Shown here piece after piece: positions 2,956 through 62,816 of a DNA stretch of 64,000 bases. The position numbers were made by a program, and so were the translations under genes. The notes beneath the pieces are model-generated. The model did not search any database and had not been told where the DNA came from. It saw nothing but the letters and a program-made list of their open reading frames with translations. Origin of the DNA: a virus. Lineage: Duplodnaviria; Caudoviricetes. The stretch lies in the IMG/VR virus record IMGVR_UViG_3300021431_000087, positions 1-64,000 of that record, one strand, 5' to 3'. Within the stretch, counting starts at the first letter, position 1; every line of letters begins with the position of its first letter.

Positions 2956-3498
2956 TTAGCAGAAAAGATTATGGTCTTTCGCATACTTGACGAAATCCGC
3001 CCTGTTCCGTGAGTTCGTCTTTATATATGCAGATGATATGTGTCTCTTGACCGTATTCGGGGAAAGGTAGAGTGCCTCCGCTATCTCCGTATTGCTCCTT
3101 CCGTCACAGACGAGTTTCATCACCCTCTTCTCCGCATCGCTAAGGCGTGAGTCCATCTTCGGCATACATATAATTCCCTCATAGGCGCACTCCCCTTGCA
3201 GGGGACATGAGACACGCTCTATGTTGAAGACCCCGCTCGTCACGTCCCGTTTTGTATGGTCAAGGTTGCCGAAGTTGCACTTGCAGAACCTCCGTACGAT
3301 GAGGAACTGAAAATAAGGTCTGTTAGCCTTCGATTTCTCGTAGCACTGGCACAGCGCCCTATAAGCCTGCGGATACAGTTCCCTTATCCGCTCTATCATC
3401 AACGGCACGACGGGTGAGCCTTCCACAAGAGACTGAAGACCATTCTCCGACTGATAAAATACCTCGTCACCGCTTATGAAAAACTCCATCACTTCCAT
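2956..3498 (-). CDS. LuxR C-terminal HTH regulator with Cys-rich N-terminal domain
   Basis: 'LSDAEKRVMKLVCDGRSNTEIAEALYLSPNTVKRHISSAYIK' LuxR HTH; Cys cluster CKC...CPLQGECAYEGIIC. Confidence 0.85.
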   Translation of the reverse strand: MEVMEFFISGDEVFYQSENGLQSLVEGSPVVPLMIERIRELYPQAYRALCQCYEKSKANRPYFQFLIVRRFCKCNFGNLDHTKRDVTSGVFNIERVSCPLQGECAYEGIICMPKMDSRLSDAEKRVMKLVCDGRSNTEIAEALYLSPNTVKRHISSAYIKTNSRNRADFVKYAKDHNLFC

Positions 3499-4864: not shown

Positions 4865-6112
4865 TTATTCTTTCTTTTTTGCTTTCCAGTGTTCCGCAAG
4901 CATCCTTGCGTGTTCATCCCTGCCCACCTTAATATATTTAAGGAAGGCAGACTCCGTCCTATGCCCCGTGATGCTCATGATACTTATGGAGGGGAAACCG
5001 GACTTGTAAAGGTTTGTCGCGAATGACCGCCTGCCCGTGTGAGATGAGACAAGCATCCACTTGCGGTATCTCGCCGTTTCCCTTTTCCCGCCTCTGGTGA
5101 CGGATATAATGACTCTTGCATTTATACGCGCCGCCTTGCAGACCTCCTTTATGCGCCTGTTGAACTTCTGGTTGCTTATACGGATGGGAACGCCGCCGTA
5201 CCTCTCCCATATCTCCATGAAAACGGGATGGATGGGAACGGTGACGTAATTGTTAGTCTTCTGCTGGCGGATGACGATGACGTCCTCCTTTATATTCTCC
5301 TCACAAAGACTCATGATATCGGAAAAGCGCAGTCCTGTCCAGCACTCCATAAGGAAGAGGTCTCTTATCCTCGCAAGCCGCGGGTGCCTCGAGAGGTTAC
5401 ACCTGCGTATCCGCTCGAGCTCCACTTCGTCGAGTGCCACGGCATCGGTCTGCTCCGTCGCCTTCTTGTATGTCTTCCACCTTGCATTGGTAGTGAGCCC
5501 CCTCTCAAATGCAGCACCCATGACGGCCTTGACATCGGATACCTTGTTGGCAATGGTGTTCGTGGCGAGACGCTTGGATTGCAGGAACGATACAAAAGAG
5601 TCAAAAAAGGTTGTGTCAATATCCTCGAAATTGAGAATCCTCTTGTCCTTGTCCTCGTACTCCTTTATATATTCCAACGTGCAAATATATCTCCTTTTCG
5701 TCCTATACGTTATTGTCTGCCCGCCCCGCCGACTGTTGATGCGTGACTCGTTAGCCTCGATAAATTCCTGGAAAAAGTCATGGAACGTCCCGGCCTTTGG
5801 CCTCGCCTTTCCGAAATGGATATCGAGCACCTCCCTCATGCTCTCCTTGGTGACCAATCCCCCCGAATGTGCCGTCTCAACGATATACCCATTAAGCACC
5901 TCGGCTATTCCATCAAGGGCATAGTTGACGCTGTCCCTATAAGGACAGTACATACTTTGTTTTACTCTCTGTTTCTCGGAATCCCAAAAGAAACGCTCCA
6001 CCTTCAAAGGGGTTGCATACATAAGTTTCTCGTTCCTTCCGAAACGCGCCGTGACATAGACGGCCTGTGGCTCATCTATATTCCGTCGTATGACATATTT
6101 GAATACAGGCAT
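4865..6112 (-). CDS. int: Tyrosine recombinase/integrase (Bacteroides type: arm-binding, SAM-like and catalytic domains)
   Basis: Catalytic R (TGLRFSD), K (QQKT), HxxR (SHTGRRS), H (ITGH), Y (KYIK). Confidence 0.95.
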   Translation of the reverse strand: MPVFKYVIRRNIDEPQAVYVTARFGRNEKLMYATPLKVERFFWDSEKQRVKQSMYCPYRDSVNYALDGIAEVLNGYIVETAHSGGLVTKESMREVLDIHFGKARPKAGTFHDFFQEFIEANESRINSRRGGQTITYRTKRRYICTLEYIKEYEDKDKRILNFEDIDTTFFDSFVSFLQSKRLATNTIANKVSDVKAVMGAAFERGLTTNARWKTYKKATEQTDAVALDEVELERIRRCNLSRHPRLARIRDLFLMECWTGLRFSDIMSLCEENIKEDVIVIRQQKTNNYVTVPIHPVFMEIWERYGGVPIRISNQKFNRRIKEVCKAARINARVIISVTRGGKRETARYRKWMLVSSHTGRRSFATNLYKSGFPSISIMSITGHRTESAFLKYIKVGRDEHARMLAEHWKAKKKE

Positions 6113-31908: not shown

Positions 31909-32556
31909 ATGAGTGATGAAATCGGGTACGTCTATGTACTAAAGAACGAATGTATGCCGGGATTGATAAAGATAGGAATCACCGACAACATACAGGAGCG
32001 CATGAGGGTATTGAACAACACAAGCGTTCCCGTGCAGTTTGAGTCCGTCTATACATGTGTGGTCAAGAAAGCGGACATGAGAAAGATTGAGTCCGCACTC
32101 CACAAGGCATTTGCCCCAGACAGGGTGAACCCCAAAAGGGAGTTCTTCCGCATGGATGCGGACAGGGTGATACCGATACTCTCCATGTTCCAGTTGGAGA
32201 ACATCACGGATGAAATAAATATGGAACTCAACAAAGACCTTGACCCGCAGGAGCGTGTCGCCCTTGAGAAAGAAAAGGCAGAGTCACCAAAGAGAAGAGA
32301 GCCGTTCAACTTTCTCGCTTTGGGAATAAAGGAAGGCGAGCATCTTTATTGGAGGGACGACCCCCATATCTTCGCCACTGTCGCGACGGAAAAGAAGGTG
32401 GCGTACAATGGCGAACTGATGTCCCTTACTGCCGCCACAAGCAAAATAAAGGGGCTTTCCTACGGCGTTCAGCCCACTCCCTACTGGCTCTACAACGGTC
32501 GACCGCTGATAGACATCTATATGGAGCGCTACTCGCCCATCGACTGTGAATCGTAA
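31909..32556 (+). CDS. GIY-YIG (T5orf172/MUG113-type) nuclease fused to a RAMA-like C-terminal domain
   Basis: 'GYVYVL...IKIGIT...IQERM', 'ESALH', 'REFF'; C-terminal 'VAYNGELMSLTAAT...YWLYNG'; opposite strand, own TATTTTTG promoter. Confidence 0.75.
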   Translation: MSDEIGYVYVLKNECMPGLIKIGITDNIQERMRVLNNTSVPVQFESVYTCVVKKADMRKIESALHKAFAPDRVNPKREFFRMDADRVIPILSMFQLENITDEINMELNKDLDPQERVALEKEKAESPKRREPFNFLALGIKEGEHLYWRDDPHIFATVATEKKVAYNGELMSLTAATSKIKGLSYGVQPTPYWLYNGRPLIDIYMERYSPIDCES

Positions 32557-42392: not shown

Positions 42393-43244
42393 TTACATAA
42401 TTGCTGCAAGAGCCTCTATCTCTGCATCTGACATCGGCTCTTTCTTGGTTTCTTGATTAGCTCCGCCAGTTCCTGGCACGCTAAACGTATCAAGTCCCTT
42501 GTCGGCACGCTCTTGATTGAACGCCTTTATATCCTCCTGGATGCCACCGAGAAACTCCTCAAAGTCCTCGTCGGAATCAAACGACATTCTGGCATAGTTC
42601 TTCTTTATGCGCTCTCCATACACACCTGCATCCTTTAAGAGTTCCTCGAGACGGTTCTCTCTGGTCGCCTTCAGACGGTCTGCCTTCATGGTATTGAACT
42701 CATTACGGAAAGCATTAAACTCTTCAAGCTGTTTCTTGAACTCCTCCTGCTGTTTCTTGTAAGCATTTGTCTGTTCCTTCAGCTGCTTGGCGAGGTTCTC
42801 GTTTTCCGCTTTCAAGCCCTTTGCCCAATCGGAATCAAGGAGTCTTTGGAATCCAGCCTCTTCTGCCGCCTTACGTGCTGCCTCCTCGGCTTTCTTGGCT
42901 GCTGCCTCCTCTTCGGCTTTACGCTTTGCCTCTGCTTCCTCGGCGGCTTTCTTCGCTGCCTCTTCTTCAGCCTTGCGTTTTGCCTCGGCCTCGGCCTTTT
43001 CACGCTCCTCCTTGTTCTTGGTGATGATACGGTTAGCATTCTTCTGACTCAGCTCAAGTATCGGCATATAGACCGCCACCGCCTTTTCTGCGGCTGCGTT
43101 CATCACCTCATCCGTCGCATCGTCATCTACTCCAAGGTTGTCTGCAATCGTCTTTGCAGCACCCTCCAATTCCTCTCTGTTGAAACCCAGGGACGAAGCC
43201 TTGGTCTTCAACAGTTCCAGTACCAACTTGGTTTTCTTGTTCAT
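42393..43244 (-). CDS. Capsid scaffolding protein
   Basis: Likely start ATG 43244; 'LGFNREELEG', A/E/K repeats (EAEAKRKAEEEAA x2), 'FDSDEDFEEF'. Confidence 0.8.
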   Translation of the reverse strand: MNKKTKLVLELLKTKASSLGFNREELEGAAKTIADNLGVDDDATDEVMNAAAEKAVAVYMPILELSQKNANRIITKNKEEREKAEAEAKRKAEEEAAKKAAEEAEAKRKAEEEAAAKKAEEAARKAAEEAGFQRLLDSDWAKGLKAENENLAKQLKEQTNAYKKQQEEFKKQLEEFNAFRNEFNTMKADRLKATRENRLEELLKDAGVYGERIKKNYARMSFDSDEDFEEFLGGIQEDIKAFNQERADKGLDTFSVPGTGGANQETKKEPMSDAEIEALAAIM

Positions 43245-43280
43245 AATTCTTATATTTGTTAAATTTTTGATAACTCGATG

Positions 43281-43314
43281 CAAATGTATCAAAAAAGTAT
43301 TTTGTTAACAAATA
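43281..43314 (-). promoter_or_regulatory. Head-operon promoter with 17-bp box
   Basis: TATTTTGTTAACAAATA at 43298-43314; minus strand TTTG-N20-TACATTTG; a second TACCTTTG element at about 43332-43339. Confidence 0.7.
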
Positions 43315-43343
43315 CATTAAAAAAAATGGTGCAAAGGTACGAA

Positions 43344-43375
43344 TAAAAAAAAAGGAGAGTCGTGAAACTCTCCTT
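43344..43375 (-). terminator. Intrinsic terminator
   Basis: AAGGAGAGT/ACTCTCCTT stem with a long T run on the minus strand. Confidence 0.7.
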
Positions 43376-43942: not shown

Positions 43943-44329
43943 TTACCCCATGTCTGTTTTTACCAACACAGTGCCTTTCACAAAACTTATAGAAAAGCGC
44001 ATAAGTTCGACACCATTGCTGCCACAATTAAAAGCGTGGTCATAATACACGTGCACCAAAAAAGAACAAGTGTCGCTTTGCTCATCATACCAGCAGCGAA
44101 TGCAAAGTCCTGCCTTTTTAAACATCTGCCGAAGTAAAGGCGTAGCAGTAAGCTGTCGTGTGGTGTCCTCATCCTCCTCTATACACACATACACTTCACC
44201 ATTTCTCCTTTCGCTTGTCGTAATAAAGGGCTTACCGTCAATACCAAGGTTCTCGCGCAGTATATTGGATATAGTGCCCATGTTGACGTTAAGTTTCTCT
44301 ATAAGATTGTTCGCTGTTTCTTTATTCAT
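43943..44329 (-). CDS. Hypothetical protein
   Basis: 128 aa, first gene after the promoter at about 44403. Confidence 0.65.
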   Translation of the reverse strand: MNKETANNLIEKLNVNMGTISNILRENLGIDGKPFITTSERRNGEVYVCIEEDEDTTRQLTATPLLRQMFKKAGLCIRCWYDEQSDTCSFLVHVYYDHAFNCGSNGVELMRFSISFVKGTVLVKTDMG

Positions 44330-44364: not shown

Positions 44365-44454
44365 TTCTAAGGGTTGCCCTTTTGTAAGGGTAGTGCGAAG
44401 ATAAGCGCTTAACCAGAAACGTGCAAGTTATTTATCTTAGTTTAGCTGAAAATA
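44365..44454 (-). promoter_or_regulatory. Promoter plus conserved leader (copy 1)
   Basis: TATCTTCG -7 variant, hairpin TACCCTT/AAGGGCA, then ACCCTTAGAA; paralogous to 51071-51162. Confidence 0.55.
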
Positions 44455-44523
44455 GGCGACTTTAGCATATCCATGCCATCGCCGCCTAACATCAAGATAT
44501 ATTTAGTATGACAAAAGATTTCC

Positions 44524-45180
44524 TTAATCCATGTCTACAAAACTGCGCATCAGCTGGCCAAGCCTCTCGTCCTTCCTTTTCCAAAAAGCATCATACGTCC
44601 TCTCTCCAAGCAAGGGATTGTCCGATATTACCCTCACGGAGGTAAAGCCTACGCCCCTCTCCTCACAGACCTGCGCTATGGCTGCGCTTTCCATATCCAA
44701 GGCTATGGGGTAATGCTCGGGATACAGCGTCTGCATGATGGTAGATGCCATCAGCTCCGACTCCACGAAGGTATCGCCCGTCGCTATCAGCCCATGCCTC
44801 ATTCCATCCAAGAATCTCCATTCAGCATAGCATGACGGATATGTCTCTGGATGCCCCTGCACCTGCCCCACTGCATTAGGACTTCCGCAGTTTACATCAT
44901 AGTACATATACTCATCGCCAACGATGACTTCCCCGATATGAACGTCATGGCTCACACCTCCTGCGCAGCCGAAAGAAATGATGCGGTTGCAGTCGTATTC
45001 CTTCCACAGCCTGTATGCCGTCACGGCAGCATTCACCTTACCGATGCCGCTTATCATCGCCACATAGGGTATGTTCCGCCTCGTCCGCCCATTGGCGAAA
45101 GCCATGCCTACTTTCTCCGTTCCTACAAAGAGGGCATCCCACTCCTTCTGCATGGCAACAATTATCCCTACCTTCTTCAT
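44524..45180 (-). CDS. mtnN: 5'-methylthioadenosine/S-adenosylhomocysteine nucleosidase
   Basis: 'GIIVAMQKE', 'SGIGKVNAA', 'GLIATGDTF', 'DMESAAIAQVC', 'VRVISD'. Confidence 0.9.
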   Translation of the reverse strand: MKKVGIIVAMQKEWDALFVGTEKVGMAFANGRTRRNIPYVAMISGIGKVNAAVTAYRLWKEYDCNRIISFGCAGGVSHDVHIGEVIVGDEYMYYDVNCGSPNAVGQVQGHPETYPSCYAEWRFLDGMRHGLIATGDTFVESELMASTIMQTLYPEHYPIALDMESAAIAQVCEERGVGFTSVRVISDNPLLGERTYDAFWKRKDERLGQLMRSFVDMD

Positions 45181-45488
45181 TCCTTCTTCTTGACGATACG
45201 TTTCTTTTTCAGTTTCAGCCGTCTCACCCTGTTGTAGACACAGTTCTCATCCACCCCGAGACGGCGGCAGATATAGCCTGCAGGATATTGTTCCCAAAGC
45301 TCCCTCAAAAGCTCGTCCTCCTGCTTCGTCCACTTGTGGAATCCCGTCTTCAGCCCGAGAATACTCATATACCTCTGAATGGTATAGTAGCTCCTCCCGA
45401 GGGATGTGGCTATTTCCGAGATGGACATAGACTCCGCATTCTTCTTTATAAATCTTTCCTCTTCGTTTGTTATCGGTTTACTGAACAT
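45177..45488 (-). CDS. Tandem Myb/SANT-like HTH repeat protein
   Basis: Two repeats 'ITNEEERFIKKN...EIATSLGRS' / 'WTKQEDELLREL...ICRRLGV'. Confidence 0.7.
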   Translation of the reverse strand: MFSKPITNEEERFIKKNAESMSISEIATSLGRSYYTIQRYMSILGLKTGFHKWTKQEDELLRELWEQYPAGYICRRLGVDENCVYNRVRRLKLKKKRIVKKKE

Positions 45489-45756
45489 ATTTTTTTACTT
45501 TTAATTTCCGTGGCAATTTATGCCAATGAGTTACAACGCAGGTTTCATTAAGATATTCTTCCGGGCTTTCATTGTTCTCAATCCATAATTTCCTTGTGGC
45601 AGAATACTCCGCTACGGTCGGAATATAATAATAAGACAATCCCTTTTCATGGTATCCTATAAGTACCCAATCCCAATACTTCCGTGGCGGCATGTACTTG
45701 TTACACGGAATCCAAAAACCAAGCCTTGCGGCAATTTCCCAAAACAGGTTCTTCAT
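45478..45756 (-). CDS. DUF551-like phage protein
   Basis: 'WIPCNKYMP...VLI...VTHWHKLP'. Confidence 0.7.
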   Translation of the reverse strand: MKNLFWEIAARLGFWIPCNKYMPPRKYWDWVLIGYHEKGLSYYYIPTVAEYSATRKLWIENNESPEEYLNETCVVTHWHKLPRKLKVKKYVQ

Positions 45757-45770
45757 TATTCAAAAATAAA

Positions 45771-45838
45771 GAGGATGACAAGAGTTGCACTTGCGTCTTA
45801 CGGATTGTACCGTTAGCGGACTGCCACGCACCATCCTC
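45771..45838 (-). ncRNA. tRNA-like cloverleaf (non-canonical)
   Basis: GAGGATG/CATCCTC 7-bp acceptor, GCG/CGC D-like arm, ACGG-TACAAT-CCGT arm (6-nt loop), GCAAG-TGCAACT-CTTGT T-like arm; no CCA. Confidence 0.55.
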
Positions 45839-45845
45839 GTGTAGG

Positions 45846-47066
45846 TTAATATTTCTTTCTTTCAAAAAGTTCTTCCTTCGTCATCACCTTTTCCCAAGGG
45901 AAGAAAGTCAGTCCGTCCTTCTCGTATGGATTGCGTCCGAAATGCCCGTAGGAAGCGGTCGGCAGATAGATGGGCTTTCTCAATCCTCCGAGCATCTTGT
46001 CTATTCCGTATGGTGAAAGGTCAAAGTGCTCCTTCACGAAATCACCGAGAACTCCTACGCCACCGTTATATGTACCGAAGTCTTCCACATAAACGCTAAC
46101 TGGCTCGGCTACACCTATGGCATAGCCAATCTGAACCTCGCAATTTGAACAGATTCCGTTTGCCACAAGGTTCTTTGCAACATAGCGAGCTGCATAGGCT
46201 GCGCTGCGGTCTACCTTGGACGGGTCTTTCCCCGAGAATGCGCCGCCGCCATGACGAGCCATGCCGCCATAGGTGTCGACAATAATCTTTCTTCCCGTCA
46301 AGCCCGTATCACCTGCTGGGCCGCCCAAGACGAACTTTCCCGTCGGATTGACATGGTATCTTATGTCTTCATTAAACAATCTCAATATACGCTCATCCTT
46401 TATCTTCGTCTTAACATACGGAATAAGTGTTTTTATTACGTCATAGCGAATCTGCTCCTGCATAGCCTTTTCCGAGGCGAACTCATCATGCTGTGTGCTA
46501 ACCACGATAGTATCAATACGTAAAGGATCGTCAAACTCGGAATACTCCACGGTCACCTGTGATTTAGCATCCGGGCGTAAGTATGGCATAAGATTGCCTT
46601 CCTTACGGATTTCAGCCAAACTCTTAACTATAAGCGTAGCTATATAGTGGGCAACTGGCATATAAGTTTCTGTCTCATCCGATGCATAGCCAAAAACGAT
46701 ACCCTGATCGCCCGCACCCTGCATCTTCTCTTCCTCACGGATGACACCCTGATTGATGTCGGGTGACTGCTCATGTATTGCCGTAAGTATTCCGCAGGAG
46801 TTGGCATCGAAGCCGTAGAGAGGATTCGTATATCCTATCGATGCGATTGTCTCCCGTACAACGCTCGGAATATCCACGTACCCCTTGCTGCGCACCTCAC
46901 CTGCTACCACGACCTGCCCTGTCGTCACAAGGGTCTCCACTGCCACATGAGACCGTTCATCCTCCTTGAGGAACGCATCAAGCACCGCATCCGATATCTG
47001 GTCAGCCACCTTGTCTGGATGCCCCTCGGAGACGCTCTCACTCGTAAAATAATATCTCTTTCTCAT
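45846..47066 (-). CDS. metK: S-adenosylmethionine synthetase
   Basis: '[13 protein letters not shown]', 'GAGDQG', 'RPDAKSQVT', '[11 protein letters not shown]', 'GGGAFSGKD', 'YGHFGR'; likely start ATG 47066. Confidence 0.97.
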
Positions 47067-47089: not shown

Positions 47090-47168
47090 CAAAGGTACGA
47101 ATAAAAAAAATATTATGCAAATAAATGAATAAAATATTTGGTTAATAAACACTTTTTTAATACTTTTG
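47090..47168. promoter_or_regulatory. Divergent promoters of metK (minus) and portal (plus) with 17-bp box
   Basis: Minus strand TACCTTTG 47097-47090; plus strand TATTTGGTTAATAAACA 47135-47151 and TACTTTTG 47161-47168. Confidence 0.7.
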
Positions 47169-47196
47169 CGCAAAAGTTGCGCAATTCTAAGGAATC

Positions 47197-48636
47197 ATGA
47201 TAGATATAAAAGAAATCCTCAGCGGTGATAATATAACGGACATTATTGCCTCTCTCAAGGAAAGGACGACACCTCCGCATTTTTGGGCGAAGCTGCGTCA
47301 GGACTATGAGCCGTCCGAGCATAAGATTGTCCACGACATGCAGGGACGGAAGGACAAGATTCACTCCGACGGCACGAAGGATAAGGCGGCAAGGCTTGCC
47401 ATCGGGCTTGAAAGGCTTCTTACGAAACGTATGAACGAGTTCACTTTCGCCATTCCCGTAAAGAGGAACTACGTGGGTGACGACACGGACGAGAAAAAGA
47501 ATATAGTAAAGGCCATCGAGCGCATATACCAGGTGGCGCACATCGACTCGGAGAACAAAAAGCGTGGGCTTGCCTATTACGCAAGCTGCGAGGCGCTTAC
47601 GATATGGTACACGAAGAAGGAAAGACACCACCTCTACGGTTTCCCGTGCAACTACAAGCTTAAGTGCAAGACCTTCTCCCCGATGACAGGCGTGCAGCTT
47701 TGGCCGCTCATTGACGAAAAAGGCGAGATGTACGCCATGTCCTTCGAATACACGAGGAAGGTGAAGGACTCCATAACGACCTTCTTCGAGACCTTCACAG
47801 CCGACAAACATTACATCTGGAAGAAAAGCGAGAGCACGGAGTGGGAGGCGGTCACGGAAGGCGAGGAGATAAGCATAGGCAAAATCCCAGGCATCTACAT
47901 CTACCGCTACAGTCCCGTATGGGAAGGACTGACGGACATTCGTGAGGAGATAGAGTACGCCCTTTCACGCCATTCCGACATCCTCGCCTACAACAGCGCC
48001 CCGATACTCAAAGTGGCGGGCACCATCGTCGGCGAAGAGGCGAAGGGAGAAACAAGACGTATCTACCGTGTCACGGAAGGAGGCGACGTCTCCTACGTTT
48101 CATGGGCGCAGAGCAACCAAGCACTCGAATACTACATCAGCACCCTCCTTAACATGTTCTTCATGCAGGCACAGATGCCCGACATATCCTTCTCCACGAT
48201 GTCGCGCCTCGGCAACATAGGGTACGATGCGAGGAAGACGCTCCTTACGGACGCTCACCTCAAAATTGGCGACGAAAGTGGTGCTTGGATCGAATTCCTC
48301 GAGAGGGAGAACAGCATTATCAAGGCTTTCTTGAAGAAGCTCAACGTCGGTTTTAAGGAAGAAGACATCGAATCCATCCTTATCGAGAATATCATCACAC
48401 CATTCATACAGGAAGACGAGATGCAGAATATCCAGAAATGGAGACTCGCAGGAGGGGACACTCCGCTCGTATCACCTCTCGAGGCCATCGAGAACGCAGG
48501 GCTCTCGGAAGACCCGCAGGCTACATTCGCACAGATTATGGCCATGCAGGCGGCGCAGCAGGCAATGAGCGAACCGGCCGCTGCAACGGAGATCGCACCG
48601 AAAACGGAAACAACAAACAATCAAGAAAATATATGA
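47197..48636 (+). CDS. Portal protein (SPP1 gp6-like)
   Basis: 479 aa; 'RMNEFTFAIPVKR', 'GKIPGIY', 'SDILAYNSAPIL', 'YVSWAQ', 'QMPDISF'. Confidence 0.88.
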   Translation: MIDIKEILSGDNITDIIASLKERTTPPHFWAKLRQDYEPSEHKIVHDMQGRKDKIHSDGTKDKAARLAIGLERLLTKRMNEFTFAIPVKRNYVGDDTDEKKNIVKAIERIYQVAHIDSENKKRGLAYYASCEALTIWYTKKERHHLYGFPCNYKLKCKTFSPMTGVQLWPLIDEKGEMYAMSFEYTRKVKDSITTFFETFTADKHYIWKKSESTEWEAVTEGEEISIGKIPGIYIYRYSPVWEGLTDIREEIEYALSRHSDILAYNSAPILKVAGTIVGEEAKGETRRIYRVTEGGDVSYVSWAQSNQALEYYISTLLNMFFMQAQMPDISFSTMSRLGNIGYDARKTLLTDAHLKIGDESGAWIEFLERENSIIKAFLKKLNVGFKEEDIESILIENIITPFIQEDEMQNIQKWRLAGGDTPLVSPLEAIENAGLSEDPQATFAQIMAMQAAQQAMSEPAAATEIAPKTETTNNQENI

Positions 48637-61774: not shown

Positions 61775-62241
61775 TCCTTCTTAAATAGTTCTTCATCAAA
61801 CGAGTCAAACCTCTCTACCCATTCGTGGGTCTTTAGATTATATCTTCCGATAGTCCAATTTATCACCACAGATGTATTGTTTGGCAGTTCAAAGTACTTC
61901 TCTACGAAAGCCTTCCATTCCTTTTCTGCCTCCTCGCGAGAATTGATATGGCACACATCGTCGTCGTCAACGTTATGTTCACAGTAGAACTGGTCTGTTA
62001 TCTGGTCAGCAATGTCATCGAGCGACGGCGCGAATTGTGTGACGTTCACTTCCTCAATAATACCGACCCATATAACATCAGTATAATCGTCCATATCCTC
62101 ATCCCAATAGTTGCCGTCGGGATGATCGTATGCGTCCTGCGCAAACGCAATAACCTCGTCAATGGAATCGAACATATCAGTGAAACACTCCGTATCACTG
62201 AGGCCAAAGCCGTACTTTACTTTTTTATCTTCCATAATCAT
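61771..62241 (-). CDS. Acidic hypothetical protein
   Basis: 156 aa, very Asp/Glu-rich. Confidence 0.65.
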   Translation of the reverse strand: MIMEDKKVKYGFGLSDTECFTDMFDSIDEVIAFAQDAYDHPDGNYWDEDMDDYTDVIWVGIIEEVNVTQFAPSLDDIADQITDQFYCEHNVDDDDVCHINSREEAEKEWKAFVEKYFELPNNTSVVINWTIGRYNLKTHEWVERFDSFDEELFKKD

Positions 62242-62816
62242 TACTTTTTACTTCTTGCAAATCTAAAATCTCTACACGCATCCGCTAATTCGTTCCCATG
62301 AGGGCAGAACCTCCGAAGCATTGACATCGTAAGATTTGCGGACATTCCACTGTGCCCTTCCGACATGAACACGTCGTAAGCCTTCTCCAGACGTGCTGCC
62401 AAAACAAGCGACTCATCACGCATTATCTTACAGCAGTCAAGCACTTGCTCCAGCTCCATTCCATGATAGAGGTCGCCGAGACGAATAGGAACAATCTCAT
62501 CCCAATACTCCAACTCGCTATCCAATACAAGACCACGCGCTTCGTTTCGGTAATGCTCGGTCAGTTGCGGTATTCTTGCCCGATGCTCGCGCTCAGCACG
62601 TTCATACTCTTCTCTCCACTTTCGTTGCCCTTCTTCAAATTCAGCCTTTGTCTTACCAAGAACTTTCATATAGGCTTCATCAACGCTGTCTGTGGAATAA
62701 ATTTCCTTTCCATTGAACTTGCCAAAGCACGGTTCGCCTGCGTTCTCGGATTCTTTCTTCAGCCACTCAATGGCTTCATCAAGATTTGTACCTCCAGGTA
62801 TTCTTATCTCTTTCAT
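62241..62816 (-). CDS. Hypothetical protein
   Basis: 'FNGKEIYS', 'RLGDLYHGMEL', 'GHSGMS'. Confidence 0.7.
   Translation of the reverse strand: MKEIRIPGGTNLDEAIEWLKKESENAGEPCFGKFNGKEIYSTDSVDEAYMKVLGKTKAEFEEGQRKWREEYERAEREHRARIPQLTEHYRNEARGLVLDSELEYWDEIVPIRLGDLYHGMELEQVLDCCKIMRDESLVLAARLEKAYDVFMSEGHSGMSANLTMSMLRRFCPHGNELADACRDFRFARSKK

Follow-up and report, generated by a model that had tools for sequence, protein, structure and literature searches.

An apparent four-gene unit between the portal and capsid genes

The window analyzed here covers positions 1 to 64,000 of one IMG/VR virus record of 124,194 bp (IMGVR_UViG_3300021431_000087), a contig classed as linear with a CheckV completeness of ~77%. 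On its minus strand lie metK, encoding a methionine adenosyltransferase that would supply S-adenosylmethionine (SAM), and mtnN (pfs), encoding a nucleosidase for 5′-methylthioadenosine (MTA) and S-adenosylhomocysteine (SAH). Portal and major capsid genes flank this region, and terminase, integrase and tail genes are found on the same contig. Together with two short genes, metK and mtnN look like one minus-strand unit that extends from a promoter-like site to a terminator-like hairpin. The original prediction, made from the sequence of the window, had described metK plus mtnN in one unit; both genes do seem to belong to it, but the helix-turn-helix (HTH) gene and the small open reading frame (ORF) between them had been missed. 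In order of their direction on the minus strand, the genes are:

45846-47066, minus: metK, methionine adenosyltransferase, 406 aa (TIGR01034, three Pfam MetK domains, motifs)
45478-45756, minus: 92-aa ORF (phrog_924 and phrog_60 matched weakly, Pfam not at all)
45177-45488, minus: 103-aa double-HTH protein (HTH_23 and HTH_11; phrog_323, 7e-19)
44524-45180, minus: mtnN/pfs, MTA/SAH nucleosidase, 218 aa (PF01048, TIGR01704, PDB matches, catalytic residues)

MetK reaches 521.6 bits against TIGR01034, whose cut-off is 309.4, and matches PF00438, PF02772 and PF02773, the N-terminal, central and C-terminal MetK domains. All of its substrate- and metal-binding motifs, including GHPDK and GAGDQG, can be read in the sequence, and they are invariant in the 20 clade members that were aligned. 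The protein predicted earlier as a full-length MetK with every signature motif is therefore intact, with a predicted activity of SAM synthesis from methionine and ATP. We place the metK start at 47066, since an ORF extended to a TTG at 47120 would overlap the promoter-like site and the homologues are 406 aa long.

The assignment of MtnN as an MTA/SAH nucleosidase was likewise borne out. The protein scores 102 bits on PF01048 (PNP_UDP_1); of two equivalog models, it narrowly passes TIGR01704 (80.7 bits; cut-off 73.8) and falls short of NF004079 (121 bits; cut-off 169). Among the PDB matches listed, every one of the 33 with E <= 1e-10 is either an MTA/SAH nucleosidase or a related aminodeoxyfutalosine nucleosidase, 4g41 scoring best (6e-20); E13, E164 and D187 of MtnN line up with its corresponding residues. 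The catalytic residues of the E. coli enzyme are Glu12, Met173-Glu174 and Asp197, and the Glu, Met-Glu and Asp of such enzymes correspond here to E13, M163-E164 and D187. Across 22 aligned sequences, which extend to cellular proteins of Prevotella and Muribaculaceae, neither E13 nor E164 varies, conservation of M163 and D187 is at least 90%, and R183 is conserved or invariant.

The two short genes are tightly packed against mtnN: the 92-aa ORF overlaps the HTH gene by 11 nt, and the HTH stop overlaps the mtnN start by 4 nt (ATGA). By eye, the 92-aa ORF looks DUF551-like from its C-terminal THWxKLP; it is 98% identical in the closest relative of the phage, described below.

Signals bounding the unit

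A sigma-70 promoter scan is uninformative for a Bacteroidota host, and the TTTG/TAnnTTTG pattern was used in its place. The window holds eight occurrences of this pattern, against 1.45 expected. The elements around and within the unit are:

47090-47121, minus: Bacteroidota-type promoter-like site TTTG-N20-TACCTTTG (by consensus), 24 nt upstream of the metK ATG
45757-45845, minus: spacer of 89 nt in which a U-run follows a long imperfect hairpin (by folding), a possible partial terminator or processing site
44449-44488, minus: GC-rich terminator-like hairpin UAGGCGGC...GUCGCCUA followed by UUUU (by folding), 36 nt past the mtnN stop
47137-47168, plus: facing partner promoter-like site of the same pattern, directed at the portal gene
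47197-48636, plus: portal gene, divergent from metK
47113-47811, minus: 232-aa ORF antisense to the portal gene, without a family match and most likely a shadow of that gene

The hairpin after mtnN is identical in sequence in the closest relative; a simple terminator scanner missed it because its loop exceeds the scanner's limit. Between it and the head genes come another terminator-like hairpin and a fresh promoter. As sequence patterns, the promoter-like site and the hairpin agree with the earlier proposal of one unit with its own promoter, and we infer from them where transcription would begin and end. The spacer hairpin downstream of metK is predicted to be no more stable than folds of shuffled sequences (-24.4 kcal/mol, z = -1.1; not significant). 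Scanned against Rfam at E <= 5, the unit showed no SAM, SAH or other riboswitch; a glutamine-riboswitch match on the opposite strand inside metK was rejected as a chance hit.

The earlier description had also set the unit between portal and scaffold genes. The portal gene is indeed its neighbor, though on the plus strand and divergent, while the "scaffold" label for 42393-43292 is unverified, the sole match there being phrog_5824, a family of unknown function.

An extended form of the promoter motif, TTATTCGTAyCTTTG, occurs at 43332-43346 and 47090-47104 of the window and at 71532-71546, 92070-92084 and 109425-109439 of the genome. It was ruled out as a timing marker, because metK shares it with the head and luxS operons and with operons that are probably early.

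LuxS and SAM-dependent enzymes on the contig

SAM users were sought by six-frame family searches of the contig and by Pfam scans of ~70 ORFs, nearly all of at least 130 aa. Neither the six-frame searches nor the Pfam scans of 28 window ORFs revealed a SAM-consuming enzyme within the 64 kb, in agreement with the original prediction. The suggested search of the rest of the genome for methyltransferases uncovered two N6/N4 DNA methyltransferases, and luxS lies 44 kb from the unit, so that the genes occupy two loci. All three genes are outside the window:

genome 91091-91585, minus: luxS (PF02664, 153 bits; HSIEH, GPMGC and CGN motifs)
genome 97073-99265 (L246:13073-15265), minus: ParB_N-N6_N4 DNA methyltransferase, 730 aa (DPPY and FAGSGTT motifs)
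genome 120270-120857: N6_N4 DNA methyltransferase, 195 aa (141 bits)

Radical-SAM enzymes, C5 methyltransferases and Methyltransf_25 enzymes were all without a match in the six-frame searches. The Dam family gave no confident match on the contig, the sole one (13.5 bits, under the cut-off) falling inside the 195-aa N6_N4 gene.

In the larger methyltransferase, an intein-like insert separates DPPY from FAGSGTT, starting with a Cys after HWKHEP and ending with THN followed by a Cys; the Intein_splicing match is 30 bits, under its cut-off. The open frame at this gene spans 1070 aa in a close relative (G005) compared with 732 here (730-aa ORF), a difference that suggests an intein size polymorphism.

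Conservation of the locus in related phages

The closest relative is an independent IMG/VR record of 119.6 kb, classed as a provirus (L006/L086; hereafter L006). It carries portal, metK, ORF, HTH, mtnN and capsid genes in the same order with 95-100% amino-acid identity, and a chimeric assembly is thereby ruled out. Against L006, dN/dS is 0.26 for metK and 0.12 for mtnN (few substitutions in both comparisons), pointing to maintenance of both genes under purifying selection in the phage lineage. Just downstream of mtnN, the gene slot at window 43943-44329 (minus) holds an unrelated ORF in L006 (L006:10852-11256; 134 aa vs 128 aa), while on either side, in the leader as far as the ATG and in the genes downstream, the two phages are near-identical. 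Because these flanks surround unrelated ORFs, the slot is a swappable cargo site.

More distant relatives were collected through MtnN, which matched 149 viral stretches in IMG/VR, from which 80 loci were kept. All but one of these (79/80) belong to a single lineage of 75-80 kb, whose major capsid and portal proteins are ~49% and ~56% identical to those of this phage. Four of its records were checked whole; each is 100% complete (CheckV), and two have direct terminal repeats. In every one of the 79 loci of this lineage, HTH, mtnN and luxS genes are adjacent or overlapping, with the capsid gene ~1.3 kb further downstream; the HTH copies adjoining mtnN are ~41% identical. There, HTH-mtnN-luxS ends a ~10-kb operon of small ORFs divergent from portal, and metK was not found in any of the four genomes checked. 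One checked representative (G001) encodes a Methyltransf_25 enzyme. Fourteen pairs of MetK and MtnN matches had longest contigs of identical size, some of only 3.8-6 kb, which suggests conserved linkage across relatives.

The phage itself is temperate, as it encodes a tyrosine integrase at window 4865-6112 (Pfam scan), and an integrase was present in all five relatives checked. Its capsid is similar to capsids of Bacteroidota phages, and a Prevotella-like Bacteroidales of the gut or rumen is the likely host. Among GenBank phages there was no megablast match to the metK-mtnN locus and no named relative of the 75-80 kb lineage. Searches of metagenome and genome collections gave no close phage relative and no prophage copy among the matches listed.

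Three further features of the contig were recorded. A T5orf172/MUG113 gene, related to GIY-YIG nucleases, stands on the opposite strand amid the tail genes (window 31909-32556, plus). The ORF at window 62241-62816 (minus) weakly resembles the Thoeris inhibitor Tad3 family, at 22 bits where the cut-off is 27. At genome 84893-88323 (plus), a cassette of DUF932, Amidoligase_2 and class-II glutamine amidotransferase genes is interrupted by a NUMOD4/HNH homing-endonuclease gene.

Origins of metK, mtnN and luxS

The original prediction had called for phylogenies of metK and mtnN against host copies. In FastTree analyses of the top hits (for MtnN, the top 120 in an unrooted tree), both proteins fall in clades apart from cellular Bacteroidales or Bacteroidota sequences. 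The close clade of MtnN spans 47-95% identity and ~40 clusters from ENA and Logan; with the 75-80 kb lineage, it lies on one side of a branch (SH-like 97) from cellular Muribaculaceae and Prevotella proteins, to which identity is ~40%. MtnN therefore appears to be an old gene of the phage lineage. For MetK, 74 sequences, 73 of them at >=66% identity, are likewise separated from GTDB Bacteroidota proteins (SH-like 99), which reach at most 63% identity among the matches listed, the nearest named being Prevotella and Segatella copri; this clade is presumably phage-borne. Neither gene is thus near-identical to a host copy.

LuxS differs from both. It shares 77% identity with the LuxS of a Prevotella metagenome-assembled genome. 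With its mtnN-linked counterpart in the 75-80 kb lineage it shares only 43%, and that counterpart is 40% identical to the Prevotella protein. MtnN-bearing phages therefore gained LuxS on at least two independent occasions. The three genes thus have three separate histories: an old mtnN, an intermediate metK and a recent, host-like luxS. Such piecemeal assembly suggests that selection favors the complete route.

Proposed SAM supply and SAH removal for phage DNA methylation

SAH inhibits methyltransferases, and Pfs/LuxS is the irreversible route for its removal. With moderate confidence, we interpret metK, mtnN and luxS as an auxiliary metabolic set that sustains methylation by the phage's own DNA methyltransferases. 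In this scheme, MetK would make SAM from methionine and ATP, raising its supply; the two N6/N4 DNA methyltransferases would use SAM and release inhibitory SAH; MtnN would cleave SAH irreversibly to adenine and S-ribosylhomocysteine; and the phage LuxS would convert the latter to homocysteine and 4,5-dihydroxy-2,3-pentanedione (DPD), the precursor of autoinducer-2 (AI-2). The phage would thereby duplicate steps of the host activated methyl cycle on both sides of the methyl transfer. The expected benefit is that methylation of new phage DNA keeps pace with replication and packaging, product inhibition being relieved while the genome is copied.

The contig and its relatives display directly which enzymes are encoded and that they are intact, how the genes are ordered and conserved, that selection on them is purifying, and that methyltransferases and LuxS are present. 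From these we infer the substrates used, the expression timing and the link to methylation. The choice of SAH as the substrate of MtnN is supported by gene linkage, because mtnN overlaps or abuts luxS in 79 IMG/VR loci and LuxS is encoded on this contig, so that the nucleosidase would feed LuxS. The earlier suggestion that modification enzymes encoded beyond the window draw on the pair is accordingly supported as far as sequence can tell, the candidate partners being two N6/N4 DNA methyltransferases and LuxS.

Several points weigh against this interpretation. Because DNA methyltransferases occur commonly among phages, finding them here has little discriminating power. In the 75-80 kb relatives, mtnN-luxS persists although metK is missing (four genomes checked), and SAM supply is therefore not an obligatory part of the set. 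LuxS was already present in all five Bacteroidales genomes checked, which were picked for a cellular MetK ~58-61% identical to that of the phage, and the phage genes would consequently add capacity rather than a new route; a B. thetaiotaomicron control was without LuxS. The idea that the host lacks the Pfs/LuxS route was rejected on the same five genomes. In a temperate phage, a promoter and terminator of its own would also fit expression in the lysogen. Finally, the contig is ~77% complete and the Pfam scans covered mainly ORFs of ~130 aa or more, so other SAM users may exist.

Alternative interpretations

The best of the alternatives, which we nevertheless consider unlikely, is a lysogenic-conversion moron: a prophage-expressed unit that raises methyl-cycle flux and AI-2 output of the host, altering its fitness or community signaling instead of aiding lytic growth. 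The autonomous look of the unit, with its promoter-like site and terminator-like hairpin between structural genes, is in line with this, as are the integrases here and in the five relatives checked, the provirus classification of L006, the two acquisitions of LuxS, and the exchange of the slot downstream of mtnN for unrelated cargo, as in moron hot spots. However, the same promoter motif precedes the head and likely early operons, which makes it uninformative on timing, and the 75-80 kb lineage has these genes not as an isolated unit but at the end of a 10-kb operon made up of small phage ORFs. A GerE/LuxR-type HTH gene near the integrase could also speak for a moron, but GerE HTH domains are generic and an AI-2 receptor was not found; moreover, the Bacteroidales genomes checked already have LuxS. 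This GerE/LuxR-type HTH forms the C-terminus of a 180-aa protein (window 2956-3498, minus) whose 115-aa N-terminal part lacks an assignment.

Rather less probable is a role in organosulfur or methionine degradation, in which methionine would pass through SAM and SAH to homocysteine, feeding pools of cysteine or sulfide, or making sulfur and adenine available again to phage synthesis. This is the framing of Kieft et al. (bioRxiv 10.1101/2021.01.05.425418), who place metK, mtnN and luxS among 11 families of auxiliary metabolic genes (AMGs) inferred to yield sulfide indirectly, with a link to Prevotella. A PAPS-reductase-like gene on the same contig (genome 105203-105982, minus, outside the window), of a type catalogued as "cysH" in viral AMG lists, would suit it, and MtnN also releases adenine. 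Yet among the ORFs scanned there was no enzyme for the steps past homocysteine, through cystathionine or cysteine, and a methyl acceptor step is still required between SAM and SAH, pointing again to methyltransferases.

We regard as improbable a reading in which Pfs and LuxS are kept for the signal itself, Prevotella phages making DPD/AI-2 to report or manipulate the density of cells or prophages and so bias the lysis-lysogeny decision or host behavior. The mtnN-adjacent HTH protein or the GerE-type regulator beside the integrase would then belong to the circuit. If so, the two LuxS acquisitions in one MtnN lineage would reflect selection for the DPD-forming step.

The original prediction had offered counter-counter-defense as an option, with the pair restoring SAM and clearing MTA in a lysogen after attack by a competitor's T3-type SAM lyase, thereby keeping SAM-dependent restriction or BREX working. 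The fit is a logical one: SAM lyase yields MTA, a substrate of MtnN, a divergent MetK might escape a SAMase inhibitor, and the phage is temperate. No linked defense system and no SAM-lyase signal accompany the genes, the conserved partner of mtnN, luxS, acts on the product of SAH and not on that of MTA, and nothing relevant to an anti-defense role of phage SAM synthetase appeared among the papers listed by a literature search. We therefore consider this option unsupported and highly improbable.

That the locus is a fragment of host DNA, a chimeric assembly or a set of decaying genes is scarcely credible: although the record is metagenomic and ~77% complete, and GC content, equal at the locus and in the rest of the contig, is uninformative on such an origin, portal and capsid genes flank the unit, the same order recurs in an independent record, MtnN and MetK are ~40% and at most 63% identical to cellular copies (among the matches listed), and intact motifs with dN/dS below 0.3 point to purifying selection rather than to inactive genes.

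Comparison with known systems

Viral sets of metK, mtnN and luxS in Prevotella-linked gut viruses are already published. Kieft et al. (bioRxiv 10.1101/2021.01.05.425418) listed the three among the dominant organosulfur AMGs of human-associated viruses, with functional residues kept and dN/dS < 1 in viral copies, with luxS+mtnN and metK+dcm on single genomes, and with a Prevotella link. The phage described here shares with those contigs the three enzymes and the Prevotella connection. Their study is a catalogue framed on sulfide, whereas our analysis adds how the unit is built, that its HTH partner is conserved, that it keeps a constant location between the genes for portal and head, that N6/N4 methyltransferases are encoded in the same genome, and that the genes differ in evolutionary age, with three ages in all.

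MetK has also been encountered with DNA methyltransferases in other temperate or gut phages. In GenBank, MetK is carried by Streptococcus Javan prophages and by Faecalibacterium phage FP_Brigit, among others. According to De Jonge et al. (PMC11283538), 59% of Heliusvirales genomes encode metK and 67% encode dcm. The pairing of MetK with a DNA methyltransferase is common to the Javan prophages, Ca. Heliusvirales and the present phage. In the former two, the methyltransferases are of the C5 (dcm) type and a nucleosidase is not reported, whereas here N6/N4 methyltransferases are combined with predicted SAH removal.

With the bacterial activated methyl cycle, represented by E. coli MetK, MtnN/Pfs (EC 3.2.2.9) and LuxS, the phage set shares its predicted chemistry and the catalytic residues of all three enzymes. 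It differs in that the phage genes are split between two loci and the phage is without methionine synthase, leaving the cycle unclosed by the phage, and in that its MtnN is ~40% identical to cellular copies and falls under one NCBIfam equivalog cut-off. The locus provides a testable system for three questions: whether SAH, through product inhibition, limits methylation of a phage genome, whether genes of this type broaden host range in the face of restriction, and whether prophages contribute to AI-2 output in the Prevotella-rich gut or rumen.

The SAM lyase of phage T3 destroys SAM and thereby disables host restriction. Like that enzyme, the genes described here would manipulate the host SAM pool, in the opposite direction: SAM would be made and SAH cleared. 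T3 SAM lyase is not known to be related to these phage enzymes in sequence or fold. The phage may thus represent a clean, fully encoded example of a strategy opposite to that of T3.

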